A stretch of 64,000 nt of DNA from Candidatus Gastranaerophilales bacterium. GTDB lineage: Bacteria > Cyanobacteriota > Vampirovibrionia > Gastranaerophilales > Gastranaerophilaceae. A program made the position numbers and the translations under genes. The stretch's first letter is position 1. Each line of letters starts with the position of its first letter. Below, in pieces: positions 1 through 56,293 of this stretch. The notes under the pieces are model-generated. The model did not search any database. It was not told the DNA's origin and saw only the letters and a list, made by a program, of their open reading frames with translations. The stretch lies in NCBI GenBank assembly GCA_944325575.1, contig CALVAR010000009.1, positions 7,761 to 71,760 of the forward strand, read 5' to 3'.

Positions 1-2
1 CT

Positions 3-235
3 TTTGTTCCTAATGGATATTTACATATTATAATTACTTCTTATGATAGAAAACAATATTTATAGAGAATATTGATATTGTAAGAACAGCTTTTAAAAAC
101 ACAAAAACAATCTATGAATTTGAAATAATCGCAATATGTGTATTGCCTAATCATATTCATTTAATATTACATCCAAACAATATTGAACGATATCCGCAAA
201 TTATTTTTTCTATAAAACATTATTTTTCAAGAAAT
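3..235 (+). pseudogene. Decayed REP-associated tyrosine transposase (RAYT, IS200/IS605 TnpA-like Y1 HUH transposase). The 5' end is off-window, there is a frameshift near nt 57-65, and the 3' half is replaced by REP/repeat sequence.
   Basis: Frame 3 (nt 3-62) reads FVPNGYLHIIITSYDRKQYL and then hits TAG at 63-65. Frame 2 continues FIENIDIVRTAFKNTKTIYEFEIIAICVLPNHIHLILHPNNIERYPQIIFSIKHYFSRNVGQ. This is collinear with about residues 15-95 of the intact RAYT at 47596-48135 (VFITFVTYNRKNILIPNIDILRNCF..ITVLQNHCHMII..IKYHFSTN). The HUH motif is present (NHIHLIL); the C-terminal Tyr-motif half is absent. Confidence 0.7.
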
Positions 236-295
236 GTTGGGCAGGTATGCCCAACCGACCAGTTTAAGTCAGTAGGTTGGGCATACCTGCCCAAC
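236..295. repeat. REP doublet: two 20-nt palindromic hairpins in inverted orientation (REPIN-like)
   Basis: GTTGGGCA-GGTA-TGCCCAAC at 236-255 and GTTGGGCA-TACC-TGCCCAAC at 276-295. Each has a perfect 8-bp stem, and the loops are reverse complements of each other. The same hairpin recurs at 8922-8941 and 17051-17070. Confidence 0.75.
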
Positions 296-462
296 ACAGA
301 TGTATCCTGTCATTCTGAGGCATAAAATATGCATTGTTGTGGCATAAATATTGCTGTATTCAGAATCTTACCAGTCTGATATAAAAATCCAAAGCCGGTA
401 AGATCCTGAGCTCGCTTTGCTCCTCAGGATGACTACATTTTTACATAATACATATTATCAAT
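276..462 (+). mobile_element. Partial copy C (~187 bp) of the TIR-bounded hairpin-rich element, same orientation as copy A
   Basis: It aligns by eye to the reverse complement of 16895-17070, running from the REP hairpin through TCAGAATCTTACC..GGTAAGATCCTGAGCTCGCTTTGCTCCTCAGGATGAC to the terminal CATTTTTACATAATACATATTATCAAT. Confidence 0.7.
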
Positions 463-3083: not shown

Positions 3084-3833
3084 CTATTTTATTGTAAAAG
3101 TAGCATTTACAACAGCATTAATTTTTTTGTTTTTAGCTCTTGTATCATAGATACCGTAATCAGACACATCTGTTGAATTTTTGGCAACTATCTGGAACAC
3201 ACCCATTTTAGCTGAATTCATAACACCTATATTTCCGCCTGTGCTTTTTACCATGCTCTGAGCTCTTTGTTTTGCATCTTTTGTTGCTTCAGCAAGCATT
3301 TTTACCTTTAACTCATTCAAGTTTGATACATAGTATTCAACGGTGTTTGATGTTAATTCAACATTCTTATCAACCAGTTTAACAACATCCTGTGATATTT
3401 TTGTTACAGCATCCACATCCGAAGATGAAACTTCTACATTCTGTGAAAGTCGGTATCCGTCAATAGTGTTTGAATCATAGCCGTTTGCTAGCTTTTTGTA
3501 AACAGGGTACGAAGAAACAGGCGTGAATTTTATATCTTCTTCTTTCATACCGCTTGAAATCAAAAACTCTTTTACATTTTTCTGGTCAGTATTGATTTTT
3601 GCATAACCTGATTTTAAATCATTGCTCCTAACTTCGTAATATGCTCTCCAGACAGCAAGGTCTGAAGAAATTTCTTGAGAAGCTGATCCGGTAACTGTTA
3701 TTGTCTGATTTTGCAATTTCTGGTAAGAAACAATAGCATTTGCAAGAATAAATGTTGAAATCATTGCGCCGAGTGCAATTACAATACCAAGCAGAATTAT
3801 CTGATAGTCCTTGATTTCTTTAATGTCTTTCAT
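3084..3833 (-). CDS. SIMPL-domain (DUF541) protein with N-terminal membrane anchor
   Basis: One N-terminal TM helix. The body shows the SIMPL pattern (ITVTGSAS..., AKQRAQSM..., GVFQI, NATFTI at the C-terminus). Confidence 0.6.
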   Translation of the reverse strand: MKDIKEIKDYQIILLGIVIALGAMISTFILANAIVSYQKLQNQTITVTGSASQEISSDLAVWRAYYEVRSNDLKSGYAKINTDQKNVKEFLISSGMKEEDIKFTPVSSYPVYKKLANGYDSNTIDGYRLSQNVEVSSSDVDAVTKISQDVVKLVDKNVELTSNTVEYYVSNLNELKVKMLAEATKDAKQRAQSMVKSTGGNIGVMNSAKMGVFQIVAKNSTDVSDYGIYDTRAKNKKINAVVNATFTIK

Positions 3834-3903
3834 TTTAAACTCCCTGAAATATTAACTTCAAATAAGTATAATATATTTTCTAAATTTTTGCTATTATTAT
3901 TTT

Positions 3904-4913: not shown

Positions 4914-5146
4914 TTAATTCTCCTTTTCTTCCATAATACTCAAATTCTGCATTTTTTATTAAGTTTCTTTACATAAAAAAATTTTTTCCTAAAATGCCGA
5001 ATTTTGGTATTAACATTAAGTATAATTATCTTTTTGCATCTGTCAATGACTCTTAAATGGCATCTTTTACTTATATGTAATAATTTCGCTGTATTGCAGG
5101 TAATAATTAGTGTTAAAGATACACTGATAATTTTTTCAAATAAATA

Positions 5147-5234: not shown

Positions 5235-5912
5235 TTGGAAAATGCAAAAAGAATTTCAGTATACATAGTAGAAAATTATAAATTAGTCAGAAAATCGCTT
5301 ACACACGTAATTGAAAAATCTTTAGATTTTGAAATACTGGGATGCTTTGAAACTGCAGAAGAATTTTCGAAAGTATTTAATACCAGAAAATCTGATATTG
5401 TGATTATGGATATGAGGACAGGAGAAACAAACGGATTGATGGCAGCTAAATATGTCAAAGAAATCTCACCGGAAACAAAGGTTGTAATCCTTTCCTCCCA
5501 TAAAAATGACGATGAAGTGATTGCGGCACTTGCTTTGGGTGCCAATGCCTATTGTTTAAAAGATATCGAGACTCCATCTTTGTTCAAAGTATTAAAAGAA
5601 GTTTATAAAGGAGCACTGCGGGTGCAGCCAAATGTTGCAGGTGCAGCAAATAATTTTGATGCAAAATCTGATATGTCTAATAACCTGAACCATCTTTATA
5701 CTAAAATCTCTGATGACTATAATCTTACACAAATAGAACAACAGATTATTAAATATATTGTTGATGGCAAAACGGATTTTGAAATTTCTAAGCTGATGAA
5801 TATAAGCCAACATACTGCAAAAGTTTATGTAAAAAATGTCTTGACAAAATTATCAGTGAATGACAGGGTACAGGCCTCACTAAAAGCGGCAAAGGCAAAA
5901 ATAATTCAATAG
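5235..5912 (+). CDS. Two-component response regulator, NarL/FixJ class (REC + LuxR-type HTH)
   Basis: Receiver domain with DIVIMDM phospho-acceptor region and KVVILSSH. C-terminal LTQIEQQIIKYIVDGKTDFEISKLMNISQHTAKVYVKNVLTKL is a GerE/LuxR HTH. TTG start 8 nt after AAGGAG. Confidence 0.85.
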   Translation: MENAKRISVYIVENYKLVRKSLTHVIEKSLDFEILGCFETAEEFSKVFNTRKSDIVIMDMRTGETNGLMAAKYVKEISPETKVVILSSHKNDDEVIAALALGANAYCLKDIETPSLFKVLKEVYKGALRVQPNVAGAANNFDAKSDMSNNLNHLYTKISDDYNLTQIEQQIIKYIVDGKTDFEISKLMNISQHTAKVYVKNVLTKLSVNDRVQASLKAAKAKIIQ

Positions 5913-8618: not shown

Positions 8619-8627
8619 GATATTTGT

Positions 8628-9037
8628 ATTGATAATATTTATTATGTAAAAATGAATATTTTGCATTCTAGAGCAGATATTTCATTTTTTCGTTCCAAGA
8701 ACTCTAAAAAATGATTAATTATCATTTTTTAGAGACTCTGCCGAATAAAAGCAACTAAATGTTGCTTTTATGAGAGGTGCTAAGTCAGATACGAAGTATC
8801 TGCGTGCCGTATAACATTGGCGGGTAGGATTTTAAGTCACTCTAAAATAAAATATCTGCTCTCTCGTTTTTTACTTAGGGAGGCATAAGGTGTTTGCTTC
8901 GGAGTGACTACGGCGCTGTCGGTTGGGCATACTTGCCCAACTCAAAAAATGTCATTCTGGTGAATTAAATATGCTTTGCTGCAAAAATATTGCTGTGTTC
9001 AGAATCTTACAAACTTGATGTGTTATCAAAAAGCCGG
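8628..9037 (-). mobile_element. Copy A of the hairpin-rich TIR element (about 410 bp, truncated at the gyrB-proximal end), inverted relative to copy B
   Basis: Reverse-complement alignment to 16955-17364. Positions 8672-8900 match the reverse complement of 17092-17320 with no mismatch (229 nt, checked by eye block by block). Flanks are about 85-90 percent identical. The terminal ATTGATAATATTTATTATGTAAAAATG is present; the last hairpin and second TIR are missing. Confidence 0.8.
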
Positions 9038-9142
9038 ATTAATATAAAAAAACTATTCTTTCTTTACAAAATAGCTCAATCTGCTTGTTTGTAGTACAAT
9101 ATTATTAAAGATAGAATTTTAGACTTAATTGGGGAAATATAA

Positions 9143-16843: not shown

Positions 16844-16858
16844 CCTAACAAGAATAAT

Positions 16859-16890
16859 AAGCCCCCTGATAAAACTATCAGGGGGCTTAT
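16859..16890 (+). terminator. Terminator-like hairpin after the 15536-16843 gene
   Basis: GCCCCCTGAT-AAAACT-ATCAGGGGGC, a perfect GC-rich 10-bp stem. The U-tract is weak (TTATATA). Confidence 0.55.
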
Positions 16891-16894
16891 ATAC

Positions 16895-17364
16895 TGATAA
16901 TATTTATTATGTAAAAAATGTCATCCTGAGGAGCAAAGCGAGCTCAGGATCTTACCGGCTTTGGATTTGTGTATCGGCCTGGTAAGATTCTGAACATAGC
17001 AATATTTTTGCAGCAAAGCACATTTAATGCTTCAGAATGACATTTGTTGAGTTGGGCAGGTATGCCCAACCGACAGCGCCTTAGTTACTCAGAAGCAAAC
17101 ACCTTATGCCTCCCTAAGTAAAAAACGAGAGAGCAGATATTTTATTTTAGAGTGACTTAAAATCCTACCCGCCAATGTTATACGGCACGCAGATACTTCG
17201 TATCTGACTTAGCACCTCTCATAAAAGCAACATTTAGTTGCTTTTATTCGGCAGAGTCTCTAAAAAATGATAATTAATCATTTTTTAGAGTTCTTGGAAC
17301 GAAAAAATGAAATATCTGCTATCGAATGCGAAATATTCATTTTTTCATAATAAATATTATCAAT
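16895..17364 (+). mobile_element. Copy B: full-length ~470-bp TIR-bounded, hairpin-packed non-coding element (MITE-like)
   Basis: Left end TGATAATATTTATTATGTAAAAAATG; reverse complement of the right end TTGATAATATTTATTATGAAAAAATG. Internal inverted repeats: ATCCTGAG/CTCAGGAT, ATCTTACC/GGTAAGAT, ATTCTGAA/TTCAGAAT, the REP GTTGGGCA-GGTA-TGCCCAAC (17051-17070), CAGATAC/GTATCTG, AAAGCAAC/GTTGCTTT, the 14-bp CTCTAAAAAATGAT/ATCATTTTTTAGAG, and AGCAGATATTT/AAATATCTGCT. No ORF of 60 aa or more lies inside. Confidence 0.85.
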
Positions 17365-17426
17365 ATATCTTATATTTATATTTTTAATGTTAAAATAAAC
17401 AAAAGAGTTAAGGAGAGAATTGATTT

Positions 17427-18755
17427 ATGACTACTGCTAACCAATCATTAAAACCAATAACAACAAAAATAAATGAAAAGGGACATATAGAAATAGGCGG
17501 ATGTGATCTTGTTGAACTGGCTGATAAATATGCTACACCATTATATGTTTTTGACGAAGCGACAATAAGAACAATTGCCCGCCAATACAAAAGCGCATTT
17601 GCTTCATATGATAAGGTTAGTATGTTATATGCATCAAAAGCTTTTATGACAAAAGCAATTGTGCGAATCCTTGACGAGGAGGGATTCGGCTTTGATATGG
17701 TCTCAGGCGGTGAAATTTATACAGCGCATAAAGCCGGTGCTGATATGAAAAAATGCCTTTTTAACGGTAATAATAAGTCATATGATGAACTGCAGATGGC
17801 AGTGGAACTCGGTGTGGGGCTTATATCTGTTGATAATTTTTTAGAACTTGCGTTGCTAAATGATGTAGCAAAGTCTAATAATAAAGTTGTTGATATTCTT
17901 TTAAGAGTTACACCGGGTATTGAGTGTCATACTCATGAATATATACAAACAGGACACTTGGATTCAAAATTTGGCTTTGATTTAACGCAAGTTGATTCTG
18001 CAGTAGAACTTATTGTTGATGAATATAAAAATCTGAATCTTGTAGGGCTGCATGCACATATAGGTTCGCAAATTTTTGAGACCTCAATATATTATGACGA
18101 GGTCGAAGTCTTATTAAAAGAAATGGGCAGATTAAAAGAAAAATATGGTCTAAATCTGACTCATATAAATCTTGGAGGAGGCCTTGGCATTAAGTATACA
18201 GAAGATGATATGCCGCCTTCGATTAATGAAATTGCTGAAAAAATAATTTCTTCAATAAAAGCAAATGCGCCAAAATATAACCTTGATGAACCGGAAATAC
18301 ATATTGAGCCGGGCAGAAGTATAATAGGCACATCCGGCGTTACTTTATACACTGTCGGCAGTTCAAAACAGGTTCCTAAAGGCAGAAAGTATGTCGCAGT
18401 AGACGGCGGTATGGCGGACAATCCAAGACCAAGCTTGTATCAGGCTGTTTATACTGCAGATGTTGCAAACAGGCCAAGTGATGCTAAAACTGAAACTGTT
18501 ACAATTGCTGGTCGATTCTGTGAGTCAGGCGATATTTTGATAAAAGATGCAGAAATGCCGCCTCTCGAAGAGGGTGATATACTCTGTTTCTATGATACAG
18601 GTGCTTACGGTTATTCTATGTCCAGCAATTACAATCGTGTACTAAAACCTGCTGCGGTACTTGTAAATAACTCACAATCTGATATTATTATAGATAGAGA
18701 AAGCTACGAGCATCTGGTTTCATTGGATAGGATACCTGAAAGATTAAAGGATTAA
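17427..18755 (+). CDS. lysA: Diaminopimelate decarboxylase
   Basis: PLP-dependent fold-III decarboxylase blocks: YASKAF (PLP Lys), HAHIGSQ, NLGGGLGI, EPGRSI, CESGD, TGAYGYSMSSNYN. AAGGAG RBS. Confidence 0.93.
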   Translation: MTTANQSLKPITTKINEKGHIEIGGCDLVELADKYATPLYVFDEATIRTIARQYKSAFASYDKVSMLYASKAFMTKAIVRILDEEGFGFDMVSGGEIYTAHKAGADMKKCLFNGNNKSYDELQMAVELGVGLISVDNFLELALLNDVAKSNNKVVDILLRVTPGIECHTHEYIQTGHLDSKFGFDLTQVDSAVELIVDEYKNLNLVGLHAHIGSQIFETSIYYDEVEVLLKEMGRLKEKYGLNLTHINLGGGLGIKYTEDDMPPSINEIAEKIISSIKANAPKYNLDEPEIHIEPGRSIIGTSGVTLYTVGSSKQVPKGRKYVAVDGGMADNPRPSLYQAVYTADVANRPSDAKTETVTIAGRFCESGDILIKDAEMPPLEEGDILCFYDTGAYGYSMSSNYNRVLKPAAVLVNNSQSDIIIDRESYEHLVSLDRIPERLKD

Positions 18756-47410: not shown

Positions 47411-47490
47411 TTTACTGAAGGATTCTTCGAATCCCCTCTCGAAAAACGATACTCAATCGTTTTTCTCGGCAGAGTGCCCCAGAAAAATAA

Positions 47491-47516: not shown

Positions 47517-47552
47517 TTTTTCTATTGGACGTTGGATGAGAACCGTAGTTGT

Positions 47553-47577
47553 GTAGGGTGCAATTTATTGCACCACC
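47553..47577. repeat. REP hairpin (family 2), left flank of RAYT
   Basis: GTAGGGTGCAATTTATTGCACCACC; the hairpin is GGTGCAAT/ATTGCACC. It matches the reverse complement of 48141-48165 at 24 of 25 positions. Confidence 0.8.
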
Positions 47578-47595
47578 AATATTCAAACAATCGAT

Positions 47596-48135
47596 TTATT
47601 CATAATCGAGTTGTTGAATTTTATATTTATCATCGATATTACACCAATTTGTATCATAACAATTGTTTTTGACAAATTTTTTAAAAGAAGAATATAACCA
47701 ATCTTTTGGTGCTATATTGTAATGCTTAAATGAATTGTAATGAATATAATCAATGTGCTTGTTTAAATCTTCTTCATCCCTTATTATATGGTCATAATAT
47801 CTTCTTTGCCAAACGCCTTTCTCACCTCTTTTTAGCGCAGACTCCGACAGATTGTTACAAATATATTTATCAGGAATATTTGTAGAAAAATGATACTTAA
47901 TTGTTCTCATTATTTTAGGAATATCTTCTGCGCACCGTGGCGATATTATCATATGACAGTGGTTTTGTAATACGGTTATTGCAATGATTTGAAATTTGTA
48001 TTTACATTTTGCATGTATAAAACAATTTCTTAAAATATCAATGTTAGGAATCAGGATATTTTTTCTGTTGTAAGTAACAAAAGTTATAAATACGGGATTT
48101 TGTGAATTAATAAAATAACGTCTGTAATTGCTCAT
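47596..48135 (-). CDS. REP-associated tyrosine transposase (RAYT; IS200/IS605 TnpA-like Y1 HUH enzyme), apparently intact
   Basis: 179 aa. HUH motif in TVLQNHCHMII and Tyr motif in IDYIHYNSFKH. It is flanked on both sides by inverted copies of a 25-nt palindromic REP. Confidence 0.85.
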   Translation of the reverse strand: MSNYRRYFINSQNPVFITFVTYNRKNILIPNIDILRNCFIHAKCKYKFQIIAITVLQNHCHMIISPRCAEDIPKIMRTIKYHFSTNIPDKYICNNLSESALKRGEKGVWQRRYYDHIIRDEEDLNKHIDYIHYNSFKHYNIAPKDWLYSSFKKFVKNNCYDTNWCNIDDKYKIQQLDYE

Positions 48136-48140
48136 AAAAT

Positions 48141-48165
48141 CATTTTACAAGATGGTGCAATAAAT
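48141..48165. repeat. REP hairpin (family 2), right flank of RAYT
   Basis: GATGGTGCAATAAATTGCACCCTAC, the inverted partner of 47553-47577. Confidence 0.8.
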
Positions 48166-48524
48166 TGCACCCTACATACTGTAAGCTCAATACTTGACAA
48201 GTATGCGATTGTAGTAAATAATGTAAATACAGGGTGGCAGCTTGCCAAGCTAGCCAACAGCCCTTAGAGGTTTGAACGGTTCTTATCTATTTTGATGAGA
48301 GCCGTTTCTTAATATGAATAGAATCAATAACAATAATATTAAAGTTAAATTGATATTTTCCATATCAGCCCCCTTTCTAGCGGGAACCAACCCGAGGTTT
48401 GAATTAAGTTGTGGTTGTTCCGTTTCGAAAGAGCTGTCTTTTAACCCTGCAGGTATATAATACTATAACCCGCCTTGTGTAGTCTATTCTTGCGCCAATG
48501 TGATTTTAGCTGTGTAGCAGTGCA

Positions 48525-56223: not shown

Positions 56224-56293
56224 CTATGCAAAATTATTGCGTCATCCTGAGGGTGAAACCCGAAGGATCTAAAGAGAGTAAAGTGCAATAAAT
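56224..56293. repeat. Degenerate scar containing pieces of both repeat families
   Basis: TATGCAAAATTATTGCGTCATCCTGAGGGTGAAACCCGAAGGATC resembles the TIR plus first hairpin of the 470-bp element (TATGTAAAAAATGTCATCCTGAGG...). It is followed by AGTGCAATAAAT, half of REP family 2. Confidence 0.5.

Follow-up and report, generated by a model that had tools for sequence, protein, structure and literature searches.

A 480-bp non-coding element upstream of lysA in a Gastranaerophilales genome is probably a mosaic of nested mobile repeats

Introduction

Short non-coding mobile repeats of bacteria include MITEs (miniature inverted-repeat transposable elements), such as the Correia elements of Neisseria, the pneumococcal RUP and the cyanobacterial Nezha, as well as mosaic clusters of intergenic repeats, such as the bacterial interspersed mosaic elements (BIMEs) of E. 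coli. Here, we describe a non-coding element bounded by terminal inverted repeats (TIRs) and located directly upstream of lysA in a 64,000-nt stretch (33% G+C) of contig CALVAR010000009.1 of a Candidatus Gastranaerophilales bacterium, which belongs to a non-photosynthetic cyanobacterial lineage. This whole stretch is referred to as the window, and all coordinates are positions in it unless a locus is named; L-numbered stretches are the loci compared with it, which come from metagenome-assembled genome (MAG), metagenome and IMG/VR collections. We consider it probable, at roughly 0.7, that the element is a mosaic of nested non-coding mobile repeats operating at the DNA level.

Another relevant class comprises repetitive extragenic palindromes (REPs), short imperfect palindromes with an unpaired GTAG-type tag, which also occur as inverted doublets (REPINs) and are the substrate of REP-associated tyrosine transposases (RAYTs) (Bertels and Rainey, 2011, PMC3116915; PMC3733652). 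In A. variabilis, GTAG-15 dimers sit inside long TATAGGA..TCCTATA palindromes, and in the mosaic intergenic regions of Neisseria, other repeats are interspersed with REP-like units (PMC3733652). There are also RAYT-like genes with TIR families on their flanks (Di Nocera et al., 2013, PMC3733652). For Melainabacteria, an uncultured lineage, we found no paper on repeats in the literature searched. The present data document for gut Melainabacteria both REP-RAYT systems, with two REP types and with an intact and a decayed RAYT, and a MITE-like family defined by its TIRs.

The lysA element resembles MITEs in being shorter than 600 bp, non-coding, multi-copy and intergenic, in having TIRs of ∼25–30 nt and a long stem-loop fold, in being present or absent between close relatives, and in adjoining promoters and terminators. 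It differs from them in that neither a target site duplication (TSD) nor a cognate transposase was found here, in that its interior consists of other, nested repeat families and is not a deleted insertion sequence (IS), and in that only a handful of copies was seen. With the REP/REPIN-RAYT systems it shares the 20-nt palindrome with an unpaired GTAG/GTCG tag, which is multi-copy in Gastranaerophilales MAGs, as well as a RAYT located between inverted REPs and a REPIN-like doublet. However, the lineage is new for this class, only the REP unit belongs to such a system, and the adjacent cognate RAYT is a pseudogene. Finally, as in the long palindromes described earlier (PMC3733652), a longer frame of inverted repeats encloses a REP and several families are interleaved, but here the frame also exists without a REP, and the position of the REP is variable and not central.

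Structure of the element

The element at lysA (copy A, 16889–17368) is 480 bp long, and ends 62 nt upstream of the lysA ATG at 17427; on the other side, it adjoins a hairpin located 3′ of a 435-aa open reading frame (ORF) (Table 1). This hairpin (16857–16890), earlier called a terminator, lacks a T-run on the plus strand. Its 29-nt TIR arms are 93% complementary. The longest ORF within it is 49 aa, and there is no transposase ORF. An earlier interpretation made from the letters alone (below, the sequence-only reading) had proposed a non-coding unit of ∼470 bp with TIRs and with no ORF of 60 aa or more, at the same distance from lysA; all of this is borne out, and every hairpin that it had listed is present in the region named. 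The TIR core TTGATAATATTTATTATG has four matches in the window at ≤1 mismatch, while shuffled sequences give 0.92 even at ≤3 mismatches.

Between the TIRs, three kinds of modules can be distinguished. The left block (16920–17082) consists of two GTCATYCTGAR hairpins, a third hairpin, and a REP; the two GTCATYCTGAR hairpins are paralogues whose stems differ on both arms. It is followed by a backbone whose left part (segments Bk1 and Bk2) also occurs in copy B of the window, twice in L151, and twice in L150. A long-range pair of the backbone, proposed earlier as 11 bp, exists and extends over 20 nt at 90%. It encloses a 123-nt central block with three hairpins and with homology to L006 and L120.

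Table 1. Coordinates of the lysA element, its parts, and related features of the window
Feature	Position	Strand	Remarks
Hairpin with 15-bp stem, 3′ of the 435-aa ORF; left flank of the element	16857..16890	+	Same hairpin directly 5′ of the TIR in L151 and L206
Left TIR, core CTGATAATATTTATTATGTAAAAAATG	16889..16920	+	TIR arm 16889–16917; same TIR in L064, L106, L150, L151, L206
Hairpin GTCATCCTGAGG...CTCAGGATC, GTCATYCTGAR family	16920..16950	+	Arms ATCCTGAG 16923–30 / CTCAGGAT 16943–50; identical in copy C and L151
Hairpin ATCTTACC...GGTAAGAT	16949..16988	+	Arms 16949–56 / 16981–88
Second GTCATYCTGAR hairpin, GTCATTCTGAAG...GTTCAGAATC (also given as GTCATTCTGAAG..TTCAGAATC)	16987..17042	-	Arms on the + strand ATTCTGAA 16987–94 / TTCAGAAT 17031–38; in copies A, B, C, twice in L151, in L150
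REP type 1, GTCG + GTTGGGCATACCTGCCCAAC on the minus strand, GTAG/GTCG-tagged palindrome	17051..17074	-	Palindrome at 17051–17070
Backbone, left part: 5′ arm of the long-range stem and first half of a small hairpin, AAAATCCTACCCGC	17083..17172	+	5′ arm 17129–17148
123-nt block with three hairpins, in place of 15 nt AAGGGCGGATTTTTC of the L150 backbone	17173..17295	+	First hairpin CAGATAC/GTATCTG 17190–17206; module CCTCTC-hairpin-CGGCAGAGT 17215–17257 (hairpin 17221–17247); 14-bp palindrome 17258–17290
Backbone, right part (Bk3)	17296..17339	+	3′ arm of the long-range stem 17304–17323; Bk3 in L150 and L151
Right TIR	17340..17368	-	Homology to element-free L134 resumes inside, ∼17347
Putative extended -10 of lysA, TGTTAAAAT, outside the element	17388..17396	+	Motif conserved in relatives; role inferred
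Copy B: right TIR, backbone, three-hairpin block, REP, GTCATTCTG hairpin	8627..9061	-	Left end decayed, no left TIR
Copy C: left TIR and left block up to the REP	272..460	-	No backbone
RAYT pseudogene, then REP type 1 (236–259)	1..259	+	Starts at L202 5163, 16 nt ahead of the window

The TIR frame and its modularity

The same TIR pair bounds different interiors. The frame has inverted repeats of ∼30 nt (..TATAyTGATAATATTTATTATGTAAAAAATGAAT) and a backbone of ∼250–370 bp with pairing arms. The TIR core TTGATAATATTTATTATGTAAAA is the sole part that the window element has in common with L064 and L106 from the MAG of another species. The L064 element (3255–3859) runs from TIR to TIR, and the one in L106 is cut by the contig end; the interiors of these two are homologous to each other and unrelated to that of the window element. 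When one TIR pair of ∼24–30 nt encloses interiors that are unrelated between species, this is the signature of a family defined by its transposase.

Elements from closer relatives show how the interior is assembled. In L151 (8089–8465), there is a complete unit of ∼370 bp from TIR to TIR, with the REP outside the left TIR; its left arm contains 58 nt absent from the window, in which GAGGGGCATAAGGT pairs with ACCTTATGCCTCCCT of the backbone. The TIR-bounded element of L150 (405–832) has no REP and contains a further nested inverted repeat of 30 nt. Both L150 copies read AAAATCCTAC(C/T)CGCAAGGGCGGATTTTTCGGAACG (also given as AAAATCCTAC(C/T)CGCAAGGGCGGATTTT) where the window has AAAATCCTACCCGC, then 123 nt, then GGAACG. 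As L150 has a 15-nt half of a hairpin at this point, the long-range stem encloses, with its three hairpins, a nested replacement and not a designed junction. In L206, the left TIR stands behind the same flanking hairpin as in the window, followed by a different interior. The junction between the REP and the backbone differs among copies A and B of the window, the first L151 copy (where the REP is in a tandem duplicate), and the second L150 copy, and both the position and the orientation of the REP vary among TIR elements. The element is thus modular, and its copies are polymorphic.

How the frame transposes, and in which order the parts were nested, is inferred here. The frame would be a MITE-like non-autonomous element with ∼30-nt TIRs, moved in trans by a transposase recognizing them. 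At its left end, ∼58 nt would have been replaced by a block of ∼160 nt with three hairpins and a GTCG-tagged REP, and in its central hairpin, 15 nt would have been replaced by the 123-nt block. The long-range stem of the frame would then close around this third insertion and give the appearance of a multi-way junction. The REP units would have been moved separately by a RAYT (an HUH/Y1 enzyme) acting on single-stranded hairpins, and the copies, once present, may serve homologous recombination and deletion, yielding the truncated copies B and C and rearrangement breakpoints.

Further copies, empty sites and assembly breaks

The sequence-only reading had placed further copies at 8628–9037 and 276–462, and BLASTN recovered both, each of them partial. 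In copy B, the minus strand of 8627–9010 matches 16982–17365 at 96%, and a decayed extension, judged against the empty site, reaches 9061; the copy is bordered by a 129-aa ORF and by gyrB, and its orientation to the downstream gene is opposite to that of copy A. In copy C, the minus strand of 272–460 matches 16895–17074 at 85%, and the copy is located between the promoter of a hydrolase operon and a RAYT pseudogene. A third suggested relic, a scar at 56224–56293, has only one 12-nt hairpin arm in common with the element. What lies there is a free-standing hairpin, GTCATCCTGAGGGTGAAACCCGAAGGATC (GTCATCCTGAGG..GGATC, 56236–56275), which is a separate small repeat of the GTCATYCTGAR palindrome family. 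A near-identical unit is found inside the L064 element (3757–3790), and palindromes of this family have 47 matches in 873 kb of Gastranaerophilales loci, also inside TIR elements. In addition to the lysA, gyrB and hydrolase/RAYT loci of the window, elements were seen at gap, lysR and other loci in MAGs.

Both the gyrB site and the lysA site have counterparts without the element in relatives. Upstream of gyrB, the intergenic region is 83–97 bp long in nine relatives with 96–97% identical GyrB and the same neighbours (an ORF of 126 or 116 aa, then gyrB), vs. 527 bp in the window, of which ∼440 bp are the insertion; homology resumes exactly at CTTTACAAA, position 9062. Orthologues of lysA with 86–98% LysA identity have no element upstream, and their upstream neighbour is different and divergently transcribed. 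In L134 (98% LysA identity), homology is kept up to ∼17347, inside the right TIR, making this an untidy empty site. The assemblies with the closest LysA and GyrB relatives are of the same kind as the MAGs carrying the REP. The MITE-like character claimed earlier, that of a non-coding, TIR-bounded and multi-copy element absent from orthologous sites in relatives, is upheld, including the empty sites that had been proposed as a check.

The copies also coincide with the places where assemblies end and gene order changes. In sample ERZ28614069, scaffolds end at 8724, 8905, 17052, and 17167, all within copies B or A, and in L206 (99% GyrB identity), gene order changes at ∼484 and ∼9062, adjoining copies C and B. 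Short-read assemblies are interrupted at these repeats, and synteny breakpoints coincide with them, which bears on the quality of MAGs of this group and on how gene order is read from them. In relatives, many short-read contigs (L122–L131, L134) also terminate within the divergent gene that precedes lysA and encodes a product starting with MGL(A/S)ASQARLL; this gene is probably itself repeated in their genomes.

Several observations weigh against the mosaic of transposed repeats. The backbone copies number ∼6 and come from two or three closely related genomes. The assembly of L150 and L151 is apparently indel-rich: the L151 stretch collinear with the region of the 813-aa gyrB product contains ORFs of at most 269 aa. 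A transposase gene flanked by the TIR was found neither in ∼1.8 Mb of compared loci nor by exact-pattern scans. Comparison of flanks for a TSD gave as candidates CTT for copy A, TA for the first L150 copy, and none for L064 and the second L151 copy, with the outer edge of the TIR uncertain by 5–7 nt. Moreover, L134 lacks the element and yet has an 18-mer similar to the right TIR with three mismatches, which a clean empty site would not have.

These observations raise the question of whether any transposon is involved at all. The element could be a BIME-like patchwork of palindromes made by recombination and spread by segmental duplication and gene conversion, its TIRs being a palindromic unit or a preferred target. 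The missing TSD and transposase, the solo TIR-like sequence of L134, the single TIR in each of copies B and C, and module junctions differing from copy to copy are all consistent with it, as is the fact that the long palindromes around the REP dimers of A. variabilis never occur alone (PMC3733652). A scan of metagenomes for the TIR yielded 67 stretches, and other parts of the element were present in just two of them, L150 and L151; L147, L166, and L169 have TA-flanked solo TIRs, again consistent with such a patchwork, and the rest are chance matches, mostly within genes. However, one ∼24–30-nt TIR pair encloses interiors that have nothing in common between species (L064 and L106 vs. the window and L150), and intergenic sites that are otherwise conserved either contain or lack the insertion, so we regard a patchwork formed with no transposon as unlikely. 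A BLASTN search of the element against plasmids and phages produced no match.

REP units and RAYT genes

The REP inside the element belongs to a family that is much more widespread than the TIR frame. In its canonical form, GT(A/C)G-GTTGGGCATACCTGCCCAAC, it has 153 instances in the compared loci, 136 of which carry a GTAG (81) or GTCG (55) tag, and it fits the GTAG-tagged REP super-family (PMC3733652); the REP strings of the window are absent from the main text of that paper. The REP hairpin GTTGGGCAnGTATGCCCAACC occurs in at least 120 stretches, almost all from Gastranaerophilales or Melainabacteria MAGs of gut and rumen, with at least 7–8 stretches per MAG for this type (type 1). Among the stretches listed, the TIR is present only in L064 and L106.

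As the sequence-only reading had stated, the embedded REP is the same as the one abutting a decayed RAYT at 1–236, which links the element to a REP-RAYT system. With a stop, a frameshift and a truncation behind the HUH motif, the RAYT pseudogene scores 37.4 bits with Pfam Y1_Tnp and 56.3 bits with NCBIfam REP_Tyr_transpos over 86 of 146 positions. A contig of the same population that reaches past the window start (L202) gives the order REP(-) 5113–5137, RAYT start 5163, REP(+) 5414–5437, and REP(-) 5450–5474; in the window, an inverted, REPIN-like doublet of REPs lies at 236–295. A large TIR transposon that carries the RAYT and ends in copy C was also considered. It was rejected, as L202 has no TIR beyond the pseudogene.

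The earlier proposal that the element is mobilized by, or derived from, a RAYT-type enzyme would make the whole unit a single REPIN-like element with the TIRs as part of the RAYT substrate, similar to a “TIRtron”. In its favour, the REP is embedded in the element, the RAYT pseudogene adjoins copy C, an intact RAYT exists in the window, and RAYT-like genes flanked by long TIRs have been described together with TIR repeat families (Di Nocera et al., PMC3733652). On the other hand, the RAYT pseudogene is flanked by REPs and not by the TIR, which is missing from its far side, and the intact RAYT carries a different REP. In addition, REPs and TIR backbones occur separately: the backbones of L151 and L150 are REP-free, REPs are overwhelmingly found without the TIR, and within TIR elements the REP varies in position and orientation. 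The REP unit makes up ∼5% of the element. Mobilization of the whole by a RAYT appears very unlikely, and the claim is not sustained. Nor is the combination of a REP with a TIR-bounded element the unusual hybrid that it had seemed, given the previously described REPs in long palindromes and mosaic clusters (PMC3733652).

The intact RAYT of the window (47596–48135, minus strand) encodes 179 aa and scores 122.5 bits with NCBIfam REP_Tyr_transpos (cutoff 80). It is flanked (47552–48176) by a second type of GTAG-tagged REP, TGTAGGGTGCAATTTATTGCACCA, in two perfect 24-nt copies in inverted orientation, and together they form a complete REPtron adjoining tRNA-Gln.

Predicted RNA structure and the lysA promoter

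The hairpins had also been read as a structured RNA with a multi-way junction, and the position of the element directly upstream of lysA suggests a cis-regulatory leader whose hairpins are selected helices. The predicted structure is indeed very strong: the plus strand of copy A folds at -156 kcal/mol (z = -11.1), with none of 100 shuffled sequences as good. However, the minus strand folds as well or better (-171 kcal/mol, z = -12.1, again none of 100), and the junction arises from the nested insertion described above.

Rfam at the gathering score yielded only tRNA in the window, with no match to the element, the lysine riboswitch included, and no match in L151. At E-values up to 10, nothing credible appeared: the best local hits were terminator-like artefacts of at most 33 bits, none with an E-value better than 1e-3, which came from the flanking hairpin, and IS605-orfB-I scored 16 bits vs. 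94 needed. A lysine riboswitch, a leader, transfer-messenger RNA (tmRNA) and an omega-RNA were rejected as candidates, as none had a credible Rfam match and ARAGORN gave only tRNA-Gln. The proposed covariation check compared substitutions across copies B, C and the two copies of L151; there were no compensated changes, 13 pair-breaking and 3 pair-keeping ones, among copies too similar for a strong test.

The genomic context does not favour an RNA either. Relatives whose LysA is 86–98% identical have no such element in front of lysA, and copy B is antisense to gyrB. Between the element and the ribosome-binding site, 30 nt before the lysA ATG, lies the putative extended -10 TGTTAAAAT, and relatives without the element have TGTTACAAT, TGCTAAAAT, or TGGTACAAT at the same position. 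As this conserved motif is downstream of the element, transcription of lysA starting inside the element or reading through it, as had been proposed, would not be required. From the sequence motif, TGTTAAAAT would be the -10 of lysA's own promoter, and the element would not be needed for lysA expression. The TIR as a Fur-type box or promoter was likewise rejected, since its half-sites do not match and no gene lies downstream of the TIR in copy B. Although the paralogous modules have stems that differ on both sides, as selected helices would, we consider a structured RNA or a lysA leader exceedingly improbable. This removes a false lead, that of a lysA riboswitch or a hybrid transposon.

A module of the central block near tRNA and tmRNA genes

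The 123-nt block that interrupts the frame contains a module of 41–45 nt, CCTCTC-hairpin-CGGCAGAGT, which has 12 distinct relatives in other loci. Its stems are 8–12 bp long and changed on both sides at six stem positions; these paired changes could reflect either selection on the hairpin or dyad-symmetric protein sites. Rfam has no match to the module, and exact 20- and 26-mers from the central block gave no matches in viral and genome collections.

The module is often found beside tRNA and tmRNA genes. Among the loci of the window and the genome scan, 7 of 12 are within 160 nt of such a gene, and 6 of these 7 have a direct repeat of the gene end, 10–21 nt long, within 4 nt. Module loci adjoining tRNA or tmRNA genes are 47435–47475 of the window, L004, L006, L013, L080, L114, L120, L216, and L219. 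At these loci, it lies within a duplicated piece of the gene end, and a direct repeat of that end follows, 10–27 nt long except at the tRNA-Gln of the window. There, the module (47435–47475) lies in a duplicated T-arm/acceptor fragment, with a direct repeat of only 7 nt (GCCCCAG). Tandem arrays of modules are present at the tmRNA of L006 and at the tRNA-Pro of L120. In L216 and L219, both from IMG/VR, a 5′ fragment of tRNA-Leu is tandemly duplicated, and in this duplicate the module stands in place of the D-loop; the L216 module has a direct repeat of ∼27 nt.

Tentatively, the central block may represent an undescribed family of ∼45 nt (CCTCTC, a hairpin of 8–12 bp, CGGCAGAGT) that inserts into duplicated tRNA or tmRNA fragments adjoining the intact gene, with direct repeats of 10–27 nt. 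The unit at lysA would then be a landing pad for three mechanistically different non-autonomous elements, one of them of a new kind; we treat this as a possible but doubtful extension. The tRNA-associated module is nevertheless the most unusual lead obtained here, and can be tested separately from the rest.

The proviruses L216 (264–2903) and L219 (2300–3889) each encode a large serine recombinase, with an identity of 26% between the two. Both recombinase genes overlap a tRNA gene at their 3′ end; this is tRNA-Leu(tag) for L216 and tRNA-Ala for L219. An S24 repressor follows in L216. We rejected the module as an attachment site of serine-integrase prophages: it lies beyond the tRNA, the integrases are only 26% identical, and none is near the other copies. 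The association between module and integrase probably runs through the tRNA.

Other repeats

A different motif, GTCTTGGATTATTG(A/G)CG(T/G)TCACAA, occurs in L202 (4408–4717), L006 (3088–3115), and L150 (5040–5075), where it adjoins partial duplicates of tRNA-Asp and of the tmRNA 3′ end, and CCTCGTCGGTCCCGCCA recurs ∼230 nt after tRNA-Asp in L202. In the window, five copies of a 177-nt segment with 69–71% identity lie between 51516 and 62309, at the ends of consecutive large minus-strand ORFs of 380–735 aa, which points to a tandem family of paralogous genes. Finally, L209 has a large ORF with a flagellin domain near gyrB.

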